DNA from: Dehalococcoidia bacterium
Lineage (GTDB): Bacteria > Chloroflexota > Dehalococcoidia > Lucifugimonadales > Australimonadaceae
DNA: 64,000 nt
Direction of reading: 5' to 3'
Assembly (NCBI GenBank): GCA_965248065.1
Contig: OZ252088.1
Span: forward strand, 2,709,202-2,773,201
Positions within the stretch are counted from its first letter, which is position 1, and each line of letters starts with the position of its first letter. The notes below the pieces were generated by a model. The model did not search any database and was not told the origin of the DNA. It was given only the letters and a program-made list of their open reading frames with translations. Positions 527 to 50,895 of the stretch are shown one piece after another. A program made the position numbers and the translations under genes.

Positions 527-1702
527 TTAGACCGGCATCGCCAAGTCCATGTACTTATAGCCGGAGCCGGTGTTCATCAGCACCGTCTCAGTCTCCGGCG
601 CCAGGAAGCCGGACTCCCGGAGCTTTCGGTAACCCACCAGCGTCGCCGCGCCCTCCGGCGCCGGCCAGATTCCCTCGGCGGCGCCCATCTCGCGCATGCC
701 GTCTAGGATCTCATCGTCCGTCACAGTGACGGCCGTGCCGCCGCTCTCGCGCACCGCATCGAGAATCAGATAGTCGCCGATGGCCGCAGGGACCCGGATA
801 CCGGCCGCGATGGTCGCCGCATTCTCCCAGGGCTCGGCGTGCCGTTCTCCGTTGCGGAACGCTCGCACAATGGGCGCGCAGCCCTCGGACTGCACGACGA
901 CCATCTTCGGGCGCTCGCCGCCTATCCAACCGAGCCGTTCCATCTCGTCGAACGCCTTCCACATGCCGACAATGCCCGTGCCGCCGCCCGTCGGATAGAC
1001 GATGGCCTCGGGCAGGCGCCAGCCGAGGTCCTCGGCAATCTCGTACCCCATCGTCTTCTTGCCCTCCACTCGATAGGGCTCACGCAGGGTGGAAACGTCG
1101 AACAGCCCCAGCTCCGCGGCCTTCTCGCGGGATAGGCGGCCCGCGTCGGATATCAGCCCGTCCACGAGCGTCAGGTGCGCCCCCGCCAGCAGGGTCTCTT
1201 TCTTGTTCGCCTCCGGCGCGTCCTGCGGCATGAAGACGTAAGACTCCATGCCCCCGCGGGCGCAGTAGGACGCCAGCGCCCCTGCGGCGTTCCCTGCCGA
1301 CGGCGTGATCAAGCGCATGAGCCCCAGCTCTTTCGCCCTCGATACGGCAGCGGACATGCCCCGCGCCTTGAACGACCCCGTCGGGTTGAGCCCCTCGTCC
1401 TTGATGAAGAGCGTTCGAGCGTCCAGCGCGGCCTCCAGCCTCCGCGCCCGGAGCATGGGCGTCCCCCCCTCGCCGAGCGTCACGACGTTCGCCGCGTCCC
1501 TGACGGGCATCAGCTCGAAGTACCGCCATATGCCGCGCGGACGCCCGGCGAAAGCCGACGGATCGACCTCTCGCCTTGCGCTTTCGAGGTCGTAGCGTGG
1601 GAAGAGGACCTTTTGCGCCTCGGGAGAGACGCCGTGCGGCTCGTCGGCGCTGTAGGTCCGGCCAGTCTCAGTGCATTCGAGGTGGGAGAGATAGCTTTTC
1701 AT
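527..1702 (-). CDS. thrC: Threonine synthase (PLP fold II)
   Basis: N-terminal Cys-containing knuckle region, EGLNPTGSFKARG PLP-lysine motif, PSAGNA and YPTGGGTG motifs. Confidence 0.88.
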   Translation of the reverse strand: MKSYLSHLECTETGRTYSADEPHGVSPEAQKVLFPRYDLESARREVDPSAFAGRPRGIWRYFELMPVRDAANVVTLGEGGTPMLRARRLEAALDARTLFIKDEGLNPTGSFKARGMSAAVSRAKELGLMRLITPSAGNAAGALASYCARGGMESYVFMPQDAPEANKKETLLAGAHLTLVDGLISDAGRLSREKAAELGLFDVSTLREPYRVEGKKTMGYEIAEDLGWRLPEAIVYPTGGGTGIVGMWKAFDEMERLGWIGGERPKMVVVQSEGCAPIVRAFRNGERHAEPWENAATIAAGIRVPAAIGDYLILDAVRESGGTAVTVTDDEILDGMREMGAAEGIWPAPEGAATLVGYRKLRESGFLAPETETVLMNTGSGYKYMDLAMPV

Positions 1703-1811
1703 GTTTCACCGCATATCCAACGCTCCACCGAACGTTGGATGCGGGACCGGAGGGTAAGTGCAACCACTATCCGCGGAGAAGGAGCGAGGCTCCTCGTTAC
1801 CAGGAAGCGTC

Positions 1812-2225
1812 CTAGCCCCTCGTGATCCATCGCCATAGGCGGGAGGCCGGCCCTGACCCCGGAGGGTCATCGAGGACCTGTCCGCGCCACCGGCGCTCCA
1901 CAGTTCGGCGGGGCCTCGTGAAGAAGGAGACGTAGGCGATGATGAACAGCGCGACGCCGATATAGGCGATAGGCGCGGCGAGGCTGATGCCCATGAGGTT
2001 GACGTCAATCCAGTTCACCACGACCGCGATGACGAGCAGTATGATGCCCGCCTGGAACAAGCGCCCCGGCGTGAAGCTGAGCGAGAAGCGGCGGGGTCTG
2101 CGGGGGGGCGCGGCCCGGTGAGCCGTGCGCTGCCCGCGCTTGGGGCGACCGGCACCCTCCTCAGGCGCCTCGTCGTCGTCCTTGCCGAGAATCTCCTCAA
2201 TCTCGCGCTGGTACCGCTGCGACAT
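1812..2225 (-). CDS. Hypothetical membrane protein
   Basis: SD GGAGGAG upstream, MSQRYQREIEEIL N-terminus, two hydrophobic helices. Confidence 0.7.
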   Translation of the reverse strand: MSQRYQREIEEILGKDDDEAPEEGAGRPKRGQRTAHRAAPPRRPRRFSLSFTPGRLFQAGIILLVIAVVVNWIDVNLMGISLAAPIAYIGVALFIIAYVSFFTRPRRTVERRWRGQVLDDPPGSGPASRLWRWITRG

Positions 2226-2390
2226 CCCTCGTTCTCCTCCGGGCTGGGCGAGATTCCCCGCCGGCGTGGCGGAGACCCTGCGCCCGCCTCCAGCCCACTG
2301 CCTAAAGCATAGCAGTCGACAAAAGGCAAGGGTAGGTGGGGTACAGCGTCCATTGGGGCTCCCACCGCGAGCGCGCCTATACTGACCGTG

Positions 2391-2614
2391 ATGATTAAGC
2401 GCGTTGTCCTCGACGTCCCCGACCGCATTGCGACGGCTGCATCGCGTCCGTTAGCCAGGTGCTGGAGACCTTCTCCGGCATCGGGGAGATCGTGGGCGGC
2501 CTCGAAAAGCTGACCCTAACGGTCGGATACGACCTCACGACGGTCACGCCGCACGCAATGAAGGCGCAGCTGGCGGCCATCGGCTATCCGGTGGCGGGCG
2601 CGCGCGACCTCTAG
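2391..2614 (+). pseudogene. Heavy-metal-associated (HMA/CopZ-like) metallochaperone, 1-nt frameshift at ~2424 (may be a sequencing error)
   Basis: Not in the ORF track. MIKRVVLDVPD, then after restoring one base (gac c[t]g cat tgc) LHCDGCIASVSQVLETFSG...GYPVAGARDL*. CxxC motif present; its stop shares CTAG 2611-2614 with the convergent CDF gene. Confidence 0.75.
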
Positions 2615-3519
2615 GCGCGGCCTGGCGCCGCGTCCGGGACGTGCGCCTCGTCGCACGCTCCGCCGTCCCCCCGTTCGAGTTGAATCGTGACGTGCCCGAT
2701 GGAGTAGCGGGCGTGCATCATTACGTGCAGCTCGTCCTGCAATGCCCGCACGCAGTCTCCCGTGCATTCGTCTGCAATGGTCACGTGCGCGCTGAGCGCG
2801 TGATAGCCGGACGTGATTGTCCAGATGTGGAGGTCGTGACAACCCTCGACGTGCTCGATGTCCTCGATGTCGGCGCGCAGCGAGGCCACGTCAACGTGCG
2901 CCGGCGTCCCCTCCAACAGGACGTGCGTCGCCTCTCGCACGACCCGCACGGCGCCGTAGACCAGGATGAGCGCTATGACGACGCTCAGGATTGGGTCCGC
3001 GATCCGCCAGTCGAACGCCAGCACCAGGACTCCCGCCACGACCGCCGCCAGCGAGCCCAGCGCGTCGCCCCCCACGTGGAAGAGCGCGGCTCGCACGTTC
3101 AGGTCCGAGTGCGACGACCGGAGCAGCAGCGTCGCGGCTATCACGTTGGCTGCGACGCCCCCGGACGCGACCGCTGAAACGATGCCTCCGCGCACTTCGG
3201 GGGGCGCGGCCATGCGCTGCGCGGCCTCGAACACGATGAGCGCAGCCATGGTAAGCAGGATGACGCCGTTGGTGAGCGCCACGAGTATCTCAGCCCGCAT
3301 GAACCCGAAGCTGCGTGACGCCGTGCCGGGCTTCGCAGCGAGCCACGCAGCGGCCAGCGCCAGCCCGAGCGCGAGCACGTCGGACACGGTATGCCCCGCG
3401 TCGGCGAGCAGGGCGAGGCTTCCGCTGATGAGCGCCCCCGCAACCTCGACCCCGAAGTAGGCCAGCACCACGCCGCCGGCGAGGGCGAGCGCCCGGCGCG
3501 ATGAGCTGTGCTCGTCCAT
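2611..3519 (-). CDS. Cation diffusion facilitator (CzcD/ZitB-like) metal efflux transporter
   Basis: SLALLADAGH and LHVGGD-like motifs, six TM helices, C-terminal HDLHIW...HVTIQLE. Confidence 0.92.
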   Translation of the reverse strand: MDEHSSSRRALALAGGVVLAYFGVEVAGALISGSLALLADAGHTVSDVLALGLALAAAWLAAKPGTASRSFGFMRAEILVALTNGVILLTMAALIVFEAAQRMAAPPEVRGGIVSAVASGGVAANVIAATLLLRSSHSDLNVRAALFHVGGDALGSLAAVVAGVLVLAFDWRIADPILSVVIALILVYGAVRVVREATHVLLEGTPAHVDVASLRADIEDIEHVEGCHDLHIWTITSGYHALSAHVTIADECTGDCVRALQDELHVMMHARYSIGHVTIQLERGDGGACDEAHVPDAAPGRA

Positions 3520-15521: not shown

Positions 15522-15649
15522 CCTCCCCCCGGATGGGGGAGGAGGACAAACGAACCTCCCCCCGGACGGAGGAGGACAAGCGAAGCTTCCTTGCAAGAGG
15601 GAGAGGGCCAAATGAACGTTCCTCTGCAAGGGGGAGGGGGACAGACGAA
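15522..15649. repeat. Four degenerate ~30-33 bp palindromic units at the pyrR-pyrB junction
   Basis: Units of the form CC-rich / GGAGGAGGAC / CGAA starting near 15522, 15555, 15585 and 15617. Confidence 0.55.
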
Positions 15650-16667
15650 TCAGCGGCGCAAGCACGTTCTCGACCTCGACGACTTTTCGCGCGAGGAGAT
15701 TCTCGGCGTGCTCGACCTGGCCGAGGCGATGCGCGAGCTGCTGGGGCGCAGCATCAAGAAGGCGCCCTCGCTGCGGGGGAAGGTCGTCATCACCGTGTTC
15801 CTCGAACCGAGCACGCGGACGCGGGTCTCGTTCGAGCAGGCGGGGAAGATGCTCAGCGCAGACGTCATCAACGTCAGCGGGTCGGGCAGCAGCGCGGAGA
15901 AGGGCGAGTCGCTCCTCAACACGGCGCTGACGCTCCAGGCGATGCGCGCGGACCTCATCGTCATCCGCAGCCCGCACTCGGGCGCGCCCTACTTCCTCGC
16001 CAGGAACCTCAACCGCGCAGGCGTCGTCAATGCGGGCGACGGCCGCCACGCCCACCCGACGCAGGCGCTCCTCGACCTGATGACGATGCGGCATCACCTG
16101 GGCGACCTCGCCGGCAAGAAGGTCGTGCTCGTGGGCGACTCGCTGCACAGCCGCGTCGCGCGGTCGGACATCTTCGGACTGACCGCGATGGGCGCTTCGG
16201 TCGTGCTCTCCGGGCCTCCGACGATGATCCCGCTCGACCTGCTCAAGGGCAATGGTTCCCGCCTTCGCGGGGATGACGGAGAGGGAGGGCTGCGAGGTTC
16301 CCGCCTTCGCGGGAATGACGGAGGAGCCCCTAGCCTCACGGTCGAGCCCGACCTTGACGCCGCTATAGAGGACGCCGACGCGGTTATCGCGCTCCGCATC
16401 CAGAAGGAACGGCAGGAGGCCGGGATGCTCCCGAGTATGCGCGAGTACACGCGCCGCTGGATGATTTCGGAGGCGAGGCTCCGCCGGGCCAAGCCGGGGG
16501 CGCTGCTCATGCACCCCGGCCCGATGAACGAGGGCCTCGAAATCGCGTCCTCGCTGGCGCACGGGCCCGGCGCGCAGATCGAGGAGCAGGTCACGAACGG
16601 CGTGGCGATTCGGATGGCGTTGCTTTATCAGCTACTTACCGGCGCGCAAGAAGAGGCCACGGAGTGA
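15612..16667 (+). CDS. pyrB: Aspartate carbamoyltransferase catalytic subunit with in-frame REP insertion
   Basis: FLEPSTRTRVSFE, NAGDGRHAHPTQALLD, VGDSLHSRVARS, MHPGPMN. Confidence 0.95.
   Translation: MNVPLQGGGGQTNQRRKHVLDLDDFSREEILGVLDLAEAMRELLGRSIKKAPSLRGKVVITVFLEPSTRTRVSFEQAGKMLSADVINVSGSGSSAEKGESLLNTALTLQAMRADLIVIRSPHSGAPYFLARNLNRAGVVNAGDGRHAHPTQALLDLMTMRHHLGDLAGKKVVLVGDSLHSRVARSDIFGLTAMGASVVLSGPPTMIPLDLLKGNGSRLRGDDGEGGLRGSRLRGNDGGAPSLTVEPDLDAAIEDADAVIALRIQKERQEAGMLPSMREYTRRWMISEARLRRAKPGALLMHPGPMNEGLEIASSLAHGPGAQIEEQVTNGVAIRMALLYQLLTGAQEEATE
16254..16320. repeat. Two GTCATTCCCGCG-type REP palindromes inside pyrB
   Basis: GGTTCCCGCCTTCGCGGGGATGACG and GGTTCCCGCCTTCGCGGGAATGACG, translated as GSRLRGDDG...GSRLRGNDG. 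Confidence 0.85.
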
Positions 16668-37374: not shown

Positions 37375-37521
37375 TCAGTCCTCCCCCTCAGACGAGGGAG
37401 GAGATTAATAGTGCTCCCCCTCAGACGGGGGAGGTGGTGGTAATACTCCCCCGCAGACGGGGAAAGACGGGCTGCGAGGTTCCCGCCTGCGCGGGAATGA
37501 CGGGTGAGGACGGGAATGACG
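37375..37521. repeat. Cluster of REP palindromes (three CTCCCCC-CAGAC-GGGG units plus a GGGAATGAC unit)
   Basis: Between convergent genes; intact units at 37446-37462 and 37478-37502. Confidence 0.75.
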
Positions 37522-46229: not shown

Positions 46230-46514
46230 CTAGTCCCGTGGCTCCGTCAATGGGAGGGTTGCGGGATTATAGCAGCCCCCTCCGTCATACCCCGCAGCCG
46301 AGGCCTTGCGTAACCCCGCGTTGGGGCGGAGGGAGCGACGGGGAGGGGCTTGGCATGACGAGTCCTCGTCATTCTCGCGAACGCGGGAATCCAGGGTGGC
46401 CGACAGGCCACATCCGGAGCGTCGGCAGGGGGAGGGCGACCGATACCTAGGTTCCCGCTTTCGCGGGAATGACGGGTGAGGACCGCGCCGCTGTCGCGCC
46501 GCTACGAGGTTCCC

Positions 46515-47397
46515 TGAATCCACAAACGAAGTGCAACACCAGATTAGGGTGTTGCCATGGAATACAGACAGCTCTGCATTGAGGAACGGTGTGAGATTGC
46601 CCGCTTACGCGCCAAGGGCTCCTCGGTCCGGCAAGTCGCTACAACTCTGGATCGCGCGGCATCGACCGTGGCTCGGGAGCTGAAGCGGAACGCGCTGCGA
46701 ACGGACGGGTACCAAGCGTCGCCGGCCCAGGAGCGTGCCCGCGCGCGGCGCTGGACGGGGGCGCGGCTGGAACGGGACGAGGAGTTGCGGGAGCGGGTCT
46801 TGGCGGGCCTGAAGTGGGGGTGGTCGCCGGAGCAGGTCGCCCATGAGATGCGCAGAGAGGAGGGCCGGACGGTGACCTCGGACGAGAGCATCTACCGGTT
46901 CGTCTACGCCCAGGCCGCGCGGCGGACCTTCGGGCACTGGGAGGCGGACACGATGCAGTTCGGGAGGTCGGGAGAGGTGGTGTTGGCCCTGCAGGAACGC
47001 TCCTCGCGCCTCTTGCTCCTCGCGCGGGCGCCGTCGAAGGAGGCGGGGCCGATCGCGGAGTCCATCGCCCGGATGCTGGGGCCGTTGCCGCCGGAGTTTC
47101 GCCAGACGGTGACCTTCGACAATGGGACCGAGTTCACCCGTCACTACGAGCTCCACCGGTTGGGCATCGAGACGTTCTTCTGCGACACGTACTCGCCGTG
47201 GCAGAAGGGGGGAGTGGAGAACGCGATCGGCCGGCTGCGGCGGTTCCTGCCGCGGGGGACGAATCTGGGGGAGGTGTCGGATGAGCGGTTTGCGCTGATC
47301 GGGCAGGCGTACAACAATACGCCGCGCAAGTGCCTGGGCTACCGGACACCGGCGGGGGTCGTCGAGGAGCAGGTGTTGCACTTCAAATGTGGATTCA
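46515..47397 (+). mobile_element. IS30-family element, copy A (141-bp in-frame deletion in transposase 46557-47420)
   Basis: 26-bp IRs (TGAATCCACAAACGAAGTGCAACACC; 23/26 match). GHWEADT, TFDNGTEF, SPWQKGGVEN and NNTPRKCLGY motifs. Confidence 0.92.
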
Positions 47398-47479
47398 CCT
47401 TCCCGCCTTCGCGGGAATGACGGAAGGGGGCGGCCTGTATAATCGCTGTCCGGTAGGAGACGGCGAGGCAGGCGTGGTT

Positions 47480-48439
47480 ATGTCAGACTCAGTGAACATC
47501 CGGGTCCCGGCGACGACGGCCAATCTTGGCCCAGGCTTCGATTGCCTGGGCATGGCGCTGTCGCTGTGGAACACGATGCGCGTTGGTTGGTCGGAGCGCC
47601 CGCACCTGGCGATTCACGGTTCGGGCGAGGGACGACTGTCGCTCGACGAGCGAAATCTGATGTACCGCTCGGCGCAACGGGTCCTCGACGAGACCGGCGC
47701 CAGCCGCCGGAGCCTGTCAATCGAGAGCTGGCAGGAGATACCGCTCAGCCGCGGCCTCGGGAGCAGCTCAGCGGCAATCGTCGGCGGGCTGTACGGAGCG
47801 AACGCTCTTCTCGACCACCCCATCGACCCGCATGGGCTGCTGCAGCTCGCTGCCCAGATCGAGGGGCACCCCGACAACGTCGCGCCGGCGCTGATGGGCG
47901 GGTTGAGCATCGCCGTCGCGGACGGAGACACCGTCCACGCCGCGCCCGTTCCACTGCCCGCCAATCTTCAATGCGTGGCGTACATACCCGACACGCCGAT
48001 GGCGACGAAGCAGGCGCGGAGCGTGCTCGAGCCGCAAACGGCGCGGATCGACGCGGTGTTCAACGTGGGACGCGCCGCGCTGCTCGTGGCGAGCCTCGCG
48101 CTGGACCGGCCGGAGTACCTGCGTCTTGCGACGCAGGACCGGCTGCACCAGCCTCAACGGCAGAAGGTGTACCGTCAGATGAAGGTCATCTTCGACCACG
48201 CGCTGGCGGCGGGCGCGCGCGGCGTGTTCTTATCCGGCGCGGGGTCGTCAATCGTCGCGTTCACGACGCGGGAGGAGAACCGCGCGTTCACCATCGGTTA
48301 CGAGATGGCGGACGCGGGGGACAAGTCAGGGCTGACGGGCACGTTCCGCGTGCTCGAACCCGCAGCGATGGGCGCCGGCCCTGTTGACCAAGTCCCGGAG
48401 GCTGCCGTTCCTCCTCCCTCGTCTGCGGGGGAGGACTGA
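47480..48439 (+). CDS. thrB: Homoserine kinase
   Basis: VPATTANLGPGFDCLG, IPLSRGLGSSSAA, EGHPDNVAP, LSGAGS. Confidence 0.95.
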   Translation: MSDSVNIRVPATTANLGPGFDCLGMALSLWNTMRVGWSERPHLAIHGSGEGRLSLDERNLMYRSAQRVLDETGASRRSLSIESWQEIPLSRGLGSSSAAIVGGLYGANALLDHPIDPHGLLQLAAQIEGHPDNVAPALMGGLSIAVADGDTVHAAPVPLPANLQCVAYIPDTPMATKQARSVLEPQTARIDAVFNVGRAALLVASLALDRPEYLRLATQDRLHQPQRQKVYRQMKVIFDHALAAGARGVFLSGAGSSIVAFTTREENRAFTIGYEMADAGDKSGLTGTFRVLEPAAMGAGPVDQVPEAAVPPPSSAGED

Positions 48440-48455
48440 GGAGGGGGTCTGCGTG

Positions 48456-49682
48456 ATGGGAACGCTCGTCCAGAAGTACGGCGGCACGTCGGTAGGCGAC
48501 GCCGAGAAGATCAGGCGCGTCGCGCAGCGCATCGCCGCAACCCGTGCGGCGGGGAACCAAGTAGCGGTGGTCGTGTCGGCGATGGGAGACACGACGGACC
48601 GGCTAATCGAGCTGGCGGAGTCCATCTCCTCGGCGCCGGAGCCTCGGGAGCTCGACATCCTGCTATCGACGGGGGAACTCGTGTCCTGCACGCTGCTGAC
48701 GATGGCGCTGCGCGAGCTGGGGGAGCAGGCAATCAGCATGAGCGGTGCCCAGGCGGGAGTGCGCACGGACACCGCCCACGGACGGGCGACCATCGTGCGA
48801 TTCGACGCCGAGCGCGTCCGGAACGAGCTGGACGCCGGGCGAATAGTCATCGTGGCCGGCTTCCAGGGAATCAACGAGGAGATGGACGTGACGACGCTGG
48901 GCCGCGGCGGCTCGGACACCACGGCGGTCGCGCTCGCAGCGGCGCTGGGGGCCGTCCGCTGCGAGGTCTACACGGACGTCGACGGCATCTACACAGCCGA
49001 CCCACGCATCGTGCCGAACGCGCGCAAGCTGAGCGAGATCGGCTACGAGGAGATGCTGGAACTGGCGAGCTACGGGGCGAAGATGCACCCGCGGTCAATC
49101 GAGCTGGGCGCGTGGTACAAGGCCCCCATCCTGGTGGCGTCGAGCCGCGAGGACTTGCCCGGCACGCTGATCCACGACGTGGAAACGGAAGGACAGGGAA
49201 TGGAAGTCTCGAACAAAGTCAGAGGCGTGACCTACGACCGGGACGTGGCGCGCATCACGGTGCGGGCCGTGCCCGACCGGCCCGGAATCGCGGCGTCCGT
49301 GTTCAAGCCGCTCTCCGACGCCAACGTGAGCGTCGACACCATCGTGCAGAACGCGAGCGCCGAGCGGCTAACGGACCTCTCATTCACGGTCGATCGCACG
49401 GACCTCCGCCTCGCGCTGGAGCTGACGAGCCGGGTCGCGGACGAAATCGGCGCGGCGGACTGCGTGTCGCACGACCACCTGGGGCAGGTGAGCATCGTGG
49501 GGACGGGGATGCAGAACGCGCCGGGAGTCGCGTCCCTGATGTTCTCGACGCTGGCGCAGGCGGGAGTGAACATCGAGATGATCACGACGTCGCAGATCCG
49601 CATCACCTGCATCGTGGACGAAGAACAGGTCAACACGGCGGTGCAGGCGCTGCACGGCGCGTTCGAGCTCGACCAGGAGTAG
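48456..49682 (+). CDS. lysC: Aspartate kinase
   Basis: VQKYGGTSV, VSAMGDTTD, TTLGRGGSD, DVDGIYTADP, two ACT domains. Confidence 0.95.
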   Translation: MGTLVQKYGGTSVGDAEKIRRVAQRIAATRAAGNQVAVVVSAMGDTTDRLIELAESISSAPEPRELDILLSTGELVSCTLLTMALRELGEQAISMSGAQAGVRTDTAHGRATIVRFDAERVRNELDAGRIVIVAGFQGINEEMDVTTLGRGGSDTTAVALAAALGAVRCEVYTDVDGIYTADPRIVPNARKLSEIGYEEMLELASYGAKMHPRSIELGAWYKAPILVASSREDLPGTLIHDVETEGQGMEVSNKVRGVTYDRDVARITVRAVPDRPGIAASVFKPLSDANVSVDTIVQNASAERLTDLSFTVDRTDLRLALELTSRVADEIGAADCVSHDHLGQVSIVGTGMQNAPGVASLMFSTLAQAGVNIEMITTSQIRITCIVDEEQVNTAVQALHGAFELDQE

Positions 49683-49784
49683 GGTCCCGCCTCCGCCAGA
49701 GGCGCGCCCTCTTCCTCAGTCCTCCCCCATAGATGGAACCTTTGCATAATTGCTCAACGCCGGGGATTCGGGGGCGAGGTTCCC

Positions 49785-50809
49785 TGAATCCACAAACGAA
49801 GTGCAACACCAGATTAGGGTGTTGCCATGGAATACAGACAGCTCTGCATTGAGGAACGGTGTGAGATTGCCCGCTTACGCGCCAAGGGCTCCTCGGTCCG
49901 GCAAGTCGCTACAACTCTGGATCGCGCGGCATCGACCGTGGCTCGGGAGCTGAAGCGGAACGCACTGCGAACGGACGGGTACCAAGCGTCGCCGGCCCAG
50001 GAGCGTGCCCGCGCGCGGCGCTGGACGGGGGCGCGGCTGGAACGGGACGAGGAGTTGCGGGAGCGGGTCTTGGCGGGCCTGAAGTGGGGGTGGTCGCCGG
50101 AGCAGGTCGCCCATGAGATGCGCAGAGAGGAGGGCCGGACGGTGACCTCGGACGAGAGCATCTACCGGTTCGTCTACGCCCCAGGCCGCGCGGCACAAAG
50201 ACCATGATTGGCGGCGCTACTTGCCGAGGGCGAAGTGGAAGCGGGGGAGGCGGGGCCGCAGGGGGGGAAGCTCGGTTTCCTTCATTCCCCTCCGCCGACC
50301 CGTTGCTGAGCGGCCGGCGGCGGCGGCCGACCGGCGGACCTTCGGGCACTGGGAGGCGGACACGATGCAGTTCGGGAGGTCGGGAGAGGTGGTGTTGGCC
50401 CTGCAGGAACGCTCCTCGCGCCTCTTGCTCCTCGCGCGTGCGCCGTCGAAGGAGGCGGGGCCGATCGCGGAGTCCATCGCCCGGATGCTGGGGCCGTTGC
50501 CGCCGGAGTTTCGCCAGACGGTGACCTTCGACAATGGGACCGAGTTCACCCGTCACTACGAGCTCCACCGGTTGGGCATCGAGACGTTCTTCTGCGACAC
50601 GTACTCGCCGTGGCAGAAGGGGGGAGTGGAGAACGCGATCGGCCGGCTGCGGCGGTTCCTGCCGCGGGGGACGAATCTGGGGGAGGTGTCGGATGAGCGG
50701 TTTGCGCTGATCGGGCAGGCGTACAACAATACGCCGCGCAAGTGCCTGGGCTACCGGACACCGGCGGGGGTCGTCGAGGAACAGGTGTTGCACTTCAAAT
50801 GTGGATTCA
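49785..50809 (+). mobile_element. IS30-family element, copy B (full length; +1 C frameshift at ~50180)
   Basis: Same IRs as copy A. It is 142 bp longer and differs by three synonymous SNPs in the shared part. Confidence 0.92.
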
Positions 50810-50895
50810 CCTTCCCGCCTTCGCGGGAATGACGGAAAGGGACGTGAGAGGACGTATTCACCCCGGCGCCAGCCGTGACGGTGAGGAGAGAGACC

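Follow-up and report, generated by a model that had tools for sequence, protein, structure and literature searches.

Repetitive extragenic palindromic (REP) sequences are among the most abundant non-coding repeats in bacteria, and insertion sequences (ISs) of the IS30 and IS1655 type transpose by a copy-out-paste-in route that passes through a junction of two inverted repeats (IRs) in a minicircle or dimer. In IS30, near-palindromic hot spots and the element's own IRs are strongly preferred as targets (PMC9333248), and the ends of IS1655-type elements carry non-complementary tip nucleotides (PMC2516522). ISs that target REPs include IS1397, ISKpn1 and ISPsy8 (IS3 family), IS621, ISPpu9, ISPpu10 and ISPa11 (IS110) and ISRm22 (IS4); the survey of REP-associated elements listed five families (IS3, IS110, IS4, IS256 and IS5), and its only IS30-family entry was IS1655, 15–33% REP-associated (Tobes and Pareja 2006, PMC1525189). 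A stop codon located in the flanking DNA is a separate habit known from IS870 and ISMt1 (both with a CTAG target), IS1547, IS1110 and IS1239 (PMC13630536), as well as ISSmi2 (PMC2828477). Here we describe an IS30-family element present twice in a 64,000-nucleotide stretch of a Dehalococcoidia bacterium (assembly GCA_965248065.1, contig OZ252088.1, positions 2,709,202 to 2,773,201; hereafter the window). This element combines the two habits, REP targeting and a flank-borrowed stop codon, and the combination is well supported across many genomes. The reading that we favour, with a probability of roughly 0.85, is that the transposase directs insertion into one REP position in one orientation, and that the transposase gene borrows the stop codon of the REP.

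The element resembles IS30 and IS1655 in having a single DDE (Asp-Asp-Glu) transposase with an N-terminal helix-turn-helix, DD(33)E spacing, IRs of ~26 bp and a target duplication of 2–3 bp. It shares with IS30 a preference for (near-)palindromic sites and possibly for sequences resembling its IRs (PMC9333248) and with IS1655-type elements the non-complementary tips (PMC2516522). It differs from both in that its target is a high-copy genomic REP rather than a unique hot spot, that it always inserts in one orientation and at the palindrome's edge, not at its centre, and that its reading frame contains no internal stop codon. As in the known REP-targeting ISs, for which the REP is a safe landing site, all or most copies occupy a fixed REP position (PMC1525189). 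Whereas the IS110 REP-targeters use a guide RNA and a different enzyme, a classical DDE transposase and a 3-bp duplication are found here. As in IS870, ISMt1, IS1547, IS1110, IS1239 and ISSmi2, no stop codon closes the reading frame before the element ends, and the point of termination depends on the downstream sequence. However, in IS870 the stop codon is made inside the duplicated target, and IS1239 and ISSmi2 acquire random tails of variable length; in our case one specific repeated target supplies an identical 7-residue tail and stop codon (TGA) at most of the sites, with a tail sequence that, unlike in the flank-stop ISs, tracks hairpin base pairing. Another IS30-type element, IS1630 of Mycoplasma fermentans, reportedly targets inverted repeats and duplicates the whole repeat (~19–26 bp), as described by Calcutt et al. 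in 1999; it would share with our element the family and the preference for hairpin-like inverted repeats, whereas here 3 bp at the stem edge are duplicated. The nearest plasmid-borne IS30 transposases were at most 46% identical. A literature search for an IS30-family element aimed at REP, REPIN (REP doublet forming hairpins), stem-loop or palindromic targets, which did not extend to ISfinder, found no description of one aimed at REPs.

The two copies in the window lie in direct orientation and are 99.7% identical to each other, differing by three substitutions, one extra C in copy 2 and a 141-bp segment present only in copy 2; the remainder of the alignment is identical. The canonical element is 1028 bp long, has 26-bp IRs with two non-complementary terminal nucleotides at each tip, and contains one long open reading frame (ORF) extending from 42 nt inside the left tip to past the right tip, in keeping with the family's usual size of ~1.0–1.25 kb, single long ORF and terminal IRs of 20–30 bp. 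Matches to the left IR and its inverted partner were found at both copies versus 0 expected from shuffles of the window, and related elements measured 1028–1037 bp. The canonical product is a 334-aa DDE transposase with an N-terminal helix-turn-helix. A preliminary description of this locus had placed the element in the IS30 family, and profile searches bore this out: with the frame restored, the transposase scored 238.2 bits against NCBIfam NF033563 (IS30; cutoff 80) over model positions 1–267, and Pfam HTH_38 also matched (5e-15). An alignment of 32 sequences contained invariant residues D178, D235 and E268, whose spacings of 57 and 33 aa fit the D-(54-61)-D-(33)-E pattern of the family (PMC2516522).

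Each of the two copies splits a REP, GAGG|TTC|CCGCCTTCGCGGGAA TGACGG, and the nucleotide and orientation are identical in both (2/2). Outside the element, the copies still agree for 10 bp on the left side (CGAGGTTCCC) and for 28 bp on the right (CCTTCCCGCCTTCGCGGGAATGACGGAA); farther out the flanks are unrelated, and the identical stretches together equal one REP plus 3 bp. Conversely, uninterrupted REPs in the window, such as GCGAGGTTCCCGCCTTCGCGGGAATGACGG at 16293–16322, equal the left flank plus the right flank minus one TTC, in agreement with the preliminary description, which had taken the common flanks for a split form of that REP. The 24-nt REP core TTCCCGCCTTCGCGGGAATGACGG matched 11 times with at most 3 mismatches, on both strands of the window, versus 0 expected, and a looser REP pattern identified 13 sites in the 64 kb, again versus 0 expected; about 11 REPs of the window are free. 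The REPs of the window have a 7–8-bp stem and a 4-nt loop, and they fit the definition of a REP as a short, imperfect palindrome scattered in many copies over both strands.

Wider comparison made use of a clade set of 82 elements, consisting of the two window copies and 80 related loci (61–76% protein identity) in which both IRs were located. These loci come from metagenome-assembled genomes (MAGs) of Dehalococcoidia and other Chloroflexota, Nitrospirales, Binatia and one alphaproteobacterium (Hyphomonadaceae). Taken alone, the window sequence GAGG-TTC-CC-[TGAATCC...GGATTCA]-CC-TTC-CCGCC allows a duplication of 2, 3 or 5 bp. The tip dinucleotides were constant within a lineage and differed between lineages, being GC...CC in all copies of OZ244145.1, CC...GC in OZ244741.1, TC... 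in several others and ...CA in still others; thus, they belong to the element. A perfect 3-bp duplication was present in 75 of the 82, with TTC at both window copies, and the other seven were mostly one mutation away from a 3-bp repeat (one, L038, was without a right-hand REP). The duplicated bases followed the local REP: TTC in 55 cases, TAC in 6, TCC in 4, and so on. A 2-bp CC or a 5-bp TTCCC duplication was rejected because the lineages with GC or TC tips and the insertions outside REPs fit 3 bp only. Between the two duplications considered in the preliminary description, TTC therefore stands, whereas the CC pair is the element's own tip dinucleotide.

Hairpins with at least 6 of 7 pairs began exactly at the duplication in 68/82 elements, almost always with a 4-nt loop, and the right end of the element faced the hairpin in every REP-associated copy. 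The reconstructed target consensus was (C)TGGA|TTC|CCGC-TTTC-GCGGGAA-TGACGG, with G at −2 in 95% and G at +19 in 99% of the sites. The single fixed REP position proposed in the preliminary description was thus found again well beyond the window, and other copies occupied this position rather than unrelated sequence. In two irregular REPs (L019 and L073) the duplication was shifted relative to the stem, and the in-frame TGA still lay seven codons past the element. One insertion outside a REP (L028) has ATGACG at the same offset, although such cases are too few to say whether the enzyme reads this motif. As judged from the sequences, the family membership, element limits, 3-bp duplication and fixed site and orientation described above are established, as are the external stop codon and high copy number considered below. 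As this architecture recurs across several phyla, it constitutes a real and apparently undescribed target habit.

The ORF of copy 1 ends with ...HFKCGFTFPPSRE*, and its TGA, 19 nt beyond the element, is part of the REP flank GGGAATGACGG; the frame of copy 2 ends likewise. No stop codon interrupted the transposase frame within the right IR, either in the two window copies or in any relative read, and an in-frame TGA followed the last full codon of the element by exactly seven codons in 63 of the 82, so that the earlier proposal of an ORF crossing the right IR and stopping at the REP TGA extends to most of the clade. Most of the 120 best database proteins were 334–336 aa long and ended with ...LHFKCESTFPPSRE or a variant, and the rest ranged from 340 to 585 aa; among all proteins read, length varied from 334 to 594 aa depending on the flank. 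Tail residues changed together with paired stem codons: FP..RE corresponds to CCG/CGG, FL..QE to CTG/CAG, FR..PE to CGG/CCG and FW..PE to TGG/CCA. These paired substitutions keep the DNA stem and alter the peptide, indicating that the constraint is on the hairpin and not on the seven residues. For annotation, it follows that transposase length (334 aa to nearly 600) reports what adjoins the element, and that gene callers will produce spurious 'fusion' tails where the REP stop is absent.

Two outgroup IS30 elements with 39–41% identity and very similar IRs have their own stop codon, indicating that the open frame is a derived trait of the clade. These outgroups, on the alphaproteobacterial plasmids NZ_CP102668.1 (L163) and NZ_CP154655.1 (L164), share the left flank TGTAAGCGGG beside the IR, and L164 fits two tip nucleotides and a 3-bp duplication (GCG). 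The outgroups may therefore have a specific target of their own.

The REP halves could in principle belong to the element, as parts of a mobile unit 'half-REP + IS + half-REP', with the free REPs being unrelated look-alikes or remnants. Six members of the clade have a 3-bp duplication with no REP on either side (L023, ATG; L028 and L058, GGG; L059, ATC; L066, ACC; L076, CGG). The left flank common to the copies is only 10 bp, and the equality between an uninterrupted REP and the two flanks minus one TTC also speaks against such a unit. In addition, near-identical copies from the source genome of the window end with FPPSRE, FPPARE, FPLSRE, FPPTRE, FPAARG or SPLSRG, that is, they are followed by different REP loop or stem variants, as found among the free REPs. 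Upstream of thrB, the close relatives L083 and L085, whose ThrB is 96–97% identical and which lack the element, retain a REP-like hairpin that is not interrupted and whose distance from the TATAAT box is unchanged; their further left flank is rearranged, and hence this is not a clean empty site. What the mobile-unit explanation can claim is the lysC-HAD spacer, where close relatives have neither the element nor the ~76-bp REP-bearing unit; joint arrival is possible there, and this site alone gives no order of events. The 3-bp duplications at insertions outside REPs, and the differing REP loop variants next to near-identical copies, lead us to conclude that the REP halves are target and not element, which removes an objection anticipated in the preliminary description; a mobile unit of this kind is hardly credible.

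The number of copies was estimated from word depth in four public runs, which were taken as assembled contigs. Depth over the element body was ~170–620 compared to ~3–24 for the adjoining single-copy genes, equivalent to ~35–70 copies. One 45-nt right-junction contig, containing the right IR and the exact REP variant of the window, accounted for ~45% of the element depth in the three runs that listed it (X5-X7), and bins containing the REP core reached a depth of 700–3200, with REP k-mer depth hundreds of times that of single-copy sequence. An exact look-up of the intact 334-aa proteins P0001 and P0002 returned no record, and the C-termini of protein-cluster members served as a proxy for the copies in the source genome. 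Its clusters comprised 61 distinct sequences, among which fragments of frameshifted copies were frequent; most of the listed ORF variants ended in REP-encoded tails, and clear non-REP tails were confined to P0124, P0126 and P0140. An exact scan for the left IR in species-representative genomes, a set not including the source genome, gave two matches only (L001 and L002), of which one lay at a contig start and the other was a degraded fragment. Short contigs joining 49779 to 50812, and thereby skipping 1032 bp (the element plus 3 bp), appeared in all four runs at 95% likeness and were gone at 97%. These joints, considered as a candidate empty site of copy 2, most likely represent other intact REPs and were not counted as insertion polymorphism.

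Spread of the element from REP to REP by homologous recombination or gene conversion, rather than by its transposase, would fit this abundance of REPs and the REP sequence that the copies share in their flanks (10 bp and 28 bp). The left homology is very short for such a process (8–10 bp), and every REP-borne copy has the 3-bp duplication expected of transposition. The same architecture is moreover found with other REP sequences (TAC, TCC and CCC duplications) in other phyla, and the insertions outside REPs represent ordinary transposition. Spread by recombination is accordingly a very unlikely explanation.

A further alternative is that insertion is untargeted and that the surviving copies are those in harmless REPs, oriented such that the frame meets a nearby stop codon. 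In its favour, REPs are for the most part neutral and located between genes, and a few insertions lie outside REPs; at three of the six non-REP sites, an in-frame TGA is displaced by no more than one codon from its usual position, a hint of selection on tail length. Selection cannot, however, yield single-nucleotide precision in one orientation, as seen where hairpin and duplication coincide in 68/82. Insertions in other neutral intergenic DNA are rare. REPs that lack the TGA are occupied at the identical nucleotide, so the position is not set by selection for a stop codon, and ~35–70 copies that are ~99.7% identical have had too little time for purging to produce the pattern. We consider this alternative improbable, although post-insertion selection may add to the pattern.

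In the mechanism that we propose for directed insertion, the transposase would select the REP site much as IS30 selects hot spots or IRs. A staggered cut would duplicate 3 bp at the outer end of the 5' stem arm, (C)TGGA|TTC|CCGC-N4-GCGGGAA-TGACGG, and after insertion the right end of the element would always face an intact hairpin. Translation would then continue across the right IR and through the hairpin (7 codons) and end at the TGA directly after the stem. One option is that TGGATTC is recognized because it resembles the element's own tip. The right-tip consensus of the clade, GG-TGGATTCACA, agrees with the target, GC-TGGATTCCCG, at 9 of 12 positions; the inner ten positions agree at 8, a value reached by 27 of 5000 shuffles, and the duplicated TTC falls inside the match. 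This similarity loosely suggests that the REP edge may be read as a pseudo-terminus. Landing in a REP would provide a harmless intergenic refuge, and the borrowed stop codon would be a convenient by-product rather than a requirement.

Several observations weigh against transposase-directed targeting or limit how far it can be taken. The match between tip and target is weak for the lineage of the window (target GAGGTTC). Target choice was deduced from the locations of copies, to which survival after insertion could contribute, and recognition of the REP by the transposase is a prediction whose determinants may lie in the sequence, the hairpin or the flank. The copies of the source genome were not all directly readable, being represented by the C-termini of their clusters, and the 80 related loci were best tblastn matches to a query that included the 7 REP-encoded residues, which introduces a slight ascertainment bias. 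The lysC-HAD spacer discussed above belongs to the same list. Finally, REPs with CGA in place of TGA are still occupied at the same nucleotide, and the frame reads on (L025, L039, L043, L048, L056 and L082). As these REPs and the non-REP sites are used, the stop codon is borrowed but not required, and the 'dependence' on the REP stop in the preliminary description was overstated.

Directed insertion into REPs would explain how such ISs can reach dozens of copies without hitting genes. Our results add a precise, orientation-specific REP site for an IS30 lineage, kept across Chloroflexota, Nitrospirales, Binatia and an alphaproteobacterium, and they extend the REP habit to a well-studied DDE family for which hot-spot and IR-targeting assays exist. 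The compensatory REP variants provide a natural series with which to dissect recognition by sequence, hairpin or flank. A bolder proposal, which we put forward tentatively and with some doubt, is that a subfamily across phyla uses one REP class as a regular landing pad, the TGGATTC edge mimicking its own terminus in a variant of the 'IR targeting' of IS30, and has given up its own stop codon, such that the transposase gene finishes with the REP hairpin and TGA, which may tune its expression. If true, this would be the sixth transposase family among REP-targeters, a classical DDE one, and a tractable system for how a DDE transposase reads a hairpin-forming repeat.

Table. Coordinates of the IS copies, their target sites and related features, numbered from the first nucleotide of the window
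Feature	Positions	Strand	Remarks
IS copy 1	46513..47399	+	887 bp; internally deleted derivative of the 1028-bp element, including element-borne terminal CC...CC
IS copy 2	49783..50811	+	1029 bp (1028 + one extra C); full length, frameshifted
Left IR, copy 1	46515..46540	+	26 nt, TGAATCCACAAACGAAGTGCAACACC
Right IR, copy 1	47372..47397	-	23/26 match to left IR; transposase frame passes through
Left IR, copy 2	49785..49810	+	26 nt, TGAATCCACAAACGAAGTGCAACACC
Right IR, copy 2	50784..50809	-	3-mismatch inverted partner of left IR
Left part of split REP, copy 1	46505..46512	+	CGAGGTTC
Left TTC duplication, copy 1	46510..46512	+	
Right TTC duplication, copy 1	47400..47402	+	first 3 nt of REP stem
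Right part of split REP, copy 1	47400..47425	+	full hairpin TTCCCGC-CTTC-GCGGGAA + TGACGGAA
Left TTC duplication, copy 2	49780..49782	+	
Right TTC duplication, REP hairpin + TGACGGAA, copy 2	50812..50837	+	TGA at 50830-50832
Uninterrupted REP, same subtype	16293..16322	+	GCGAGGTTCCCGCCTTCGCGGGAATGACGG; GCGAGG-TTCCCGCCTTCGCGGGAA-TGACGG; shows empty target
Second uninterrupted REP	37472..37503	+	same CTGCGAGG left flank
Transposase ORF, copy 1	46557..47420	+	287 aa; last 7 codons + TGA (47418-47420) are REP sequence
Deletion junction, copy 1	46920..46923	+	CGGC microhomology; from alignment with copy 2
CCCC run, copy 2	50179..50182	+	one C too many; copy 1 and intact proteins imply CCC
Left-IR / ribosome-binding-region hairpin	46533..46555	+	GCAACACC-N7-GGTGTTGC

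Both copies in the window are damaged, a point that the preliminary description had missed. The 141-bp deletion of copy 1 corresponds to 50195–50335 of copy 2, is in frame and removes 47 codons (residues 122–168 of the 334-aa protein), among them 10 positions that are invariant in the clade. The additional C of copy 2 splits its ORF into 49827–50207 (126 aa) and a distal frame ending at 50832; without this base, copy 2 encodes a 334-aa protein that is 99% identical over its full length to the intact P0001 and P0002, both from a single 3,168,340-bp contig of the source genome. Since copy 1 is without 47 residues and copy 2 is frameshifted, the window copies are predicted to be unable to transpose on their own, and intact copies elsewhere in the genome could mobilize them in trans. 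The collapsed high-depth element contig carries the 141 bp in all four public runs containing the locus and omits one base at 50179 in three of them (X5-X7), implying that the majority of the element copies are intact in both respects. At least two versions of the 141-bp deletion form occur in the genome, each adjoining a different REP variant (P0004 and P0151; tails PARE and PSRE); this non-autonomous form appears to have multiplied, presumably by mobilization in trans. The same +1 C frameshift was found in two distinct 126-aa ORF variants of the source genome (P0149 and P0152), and it is not in the majority consensus of the runs; it could represent a propagated defective lineage or a homopolymer error of long-read assembly.

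The two copies (46513–50811) bracket thrB (47480–48439) and lysC (48384–49682), and recombination between these direct copies could delete or duplicate both genes. A composite transposon around thrB-lysC was considered and rejected, because each of them lies between the two halves of a REP of its own. At the left end of each copy (46533–46555 and 49803–49825), the inner part of the left IR can pair with the Shine-Dalgarno region just before the ATG. This hairpin was kept in nearly all elements examined; its stem is almost invariant, and it therefore offers no covariation evidence. Hairpins over a Shine-Dalgarno region are the kind of structure that blocks translation of transcripts entering from outside.

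Additional observations concern the REPs themselves. One REP design, GGAT-stem-N4-stem-ATGACGG, recurs with compensatory changes in its stem at loci L003-L082, which belong to Chloroflexota, Nitrospirales, Binatia and the alphaproteobacterial MAG; this raises the question of whether this REP class and the element spread together. At 46511, in runs X5 and X7, there is one contig in which the left end of the element follows a complete symmetric REP (CCTGGATTCCCGCCTCCGCGGGAA|TC-CC-TGAATCC); insertion at this site was at GGA|ATC|C in the 3' arm, which hints that the near-palindrome GGA(T/A)TCC is the core recognized. Two more REPs in opposite orientation lie just upstream of copy 1, at 46366–46389 (−) and 46452–46475 (+), and copy 1 thus sits in a REP cluster consisting of a REPIN-like inverted pair and the split REP. 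The REP of the lysC-HAD spacer (49734–49782 and 50812–50840) is part of the ~76-bp unit, TGGAACCTTTGCATAATT...GGGAATGACGGAAAGGG, and the motif TTATGCAAAGGT, in this or the complementary form, is found again next to REPs of other genomes (L019, L020, L052, L072, L074 and L079); together, the unit and the recurring motif suggest a larger mobile REP-containing unit. Most REP copies of the window are intergenic. The two tandem REPs at 16251–16325, however, lie in frame inside a pyrB-like (aspartate carbamoyltransferase) ORF (15591–16667), to which they add ~25 residues (GSRLRGDDGEGGLRGSRLRGNDGG) with the frame unbroken, and these 'extragenic' repeats are thus not always extragenic.

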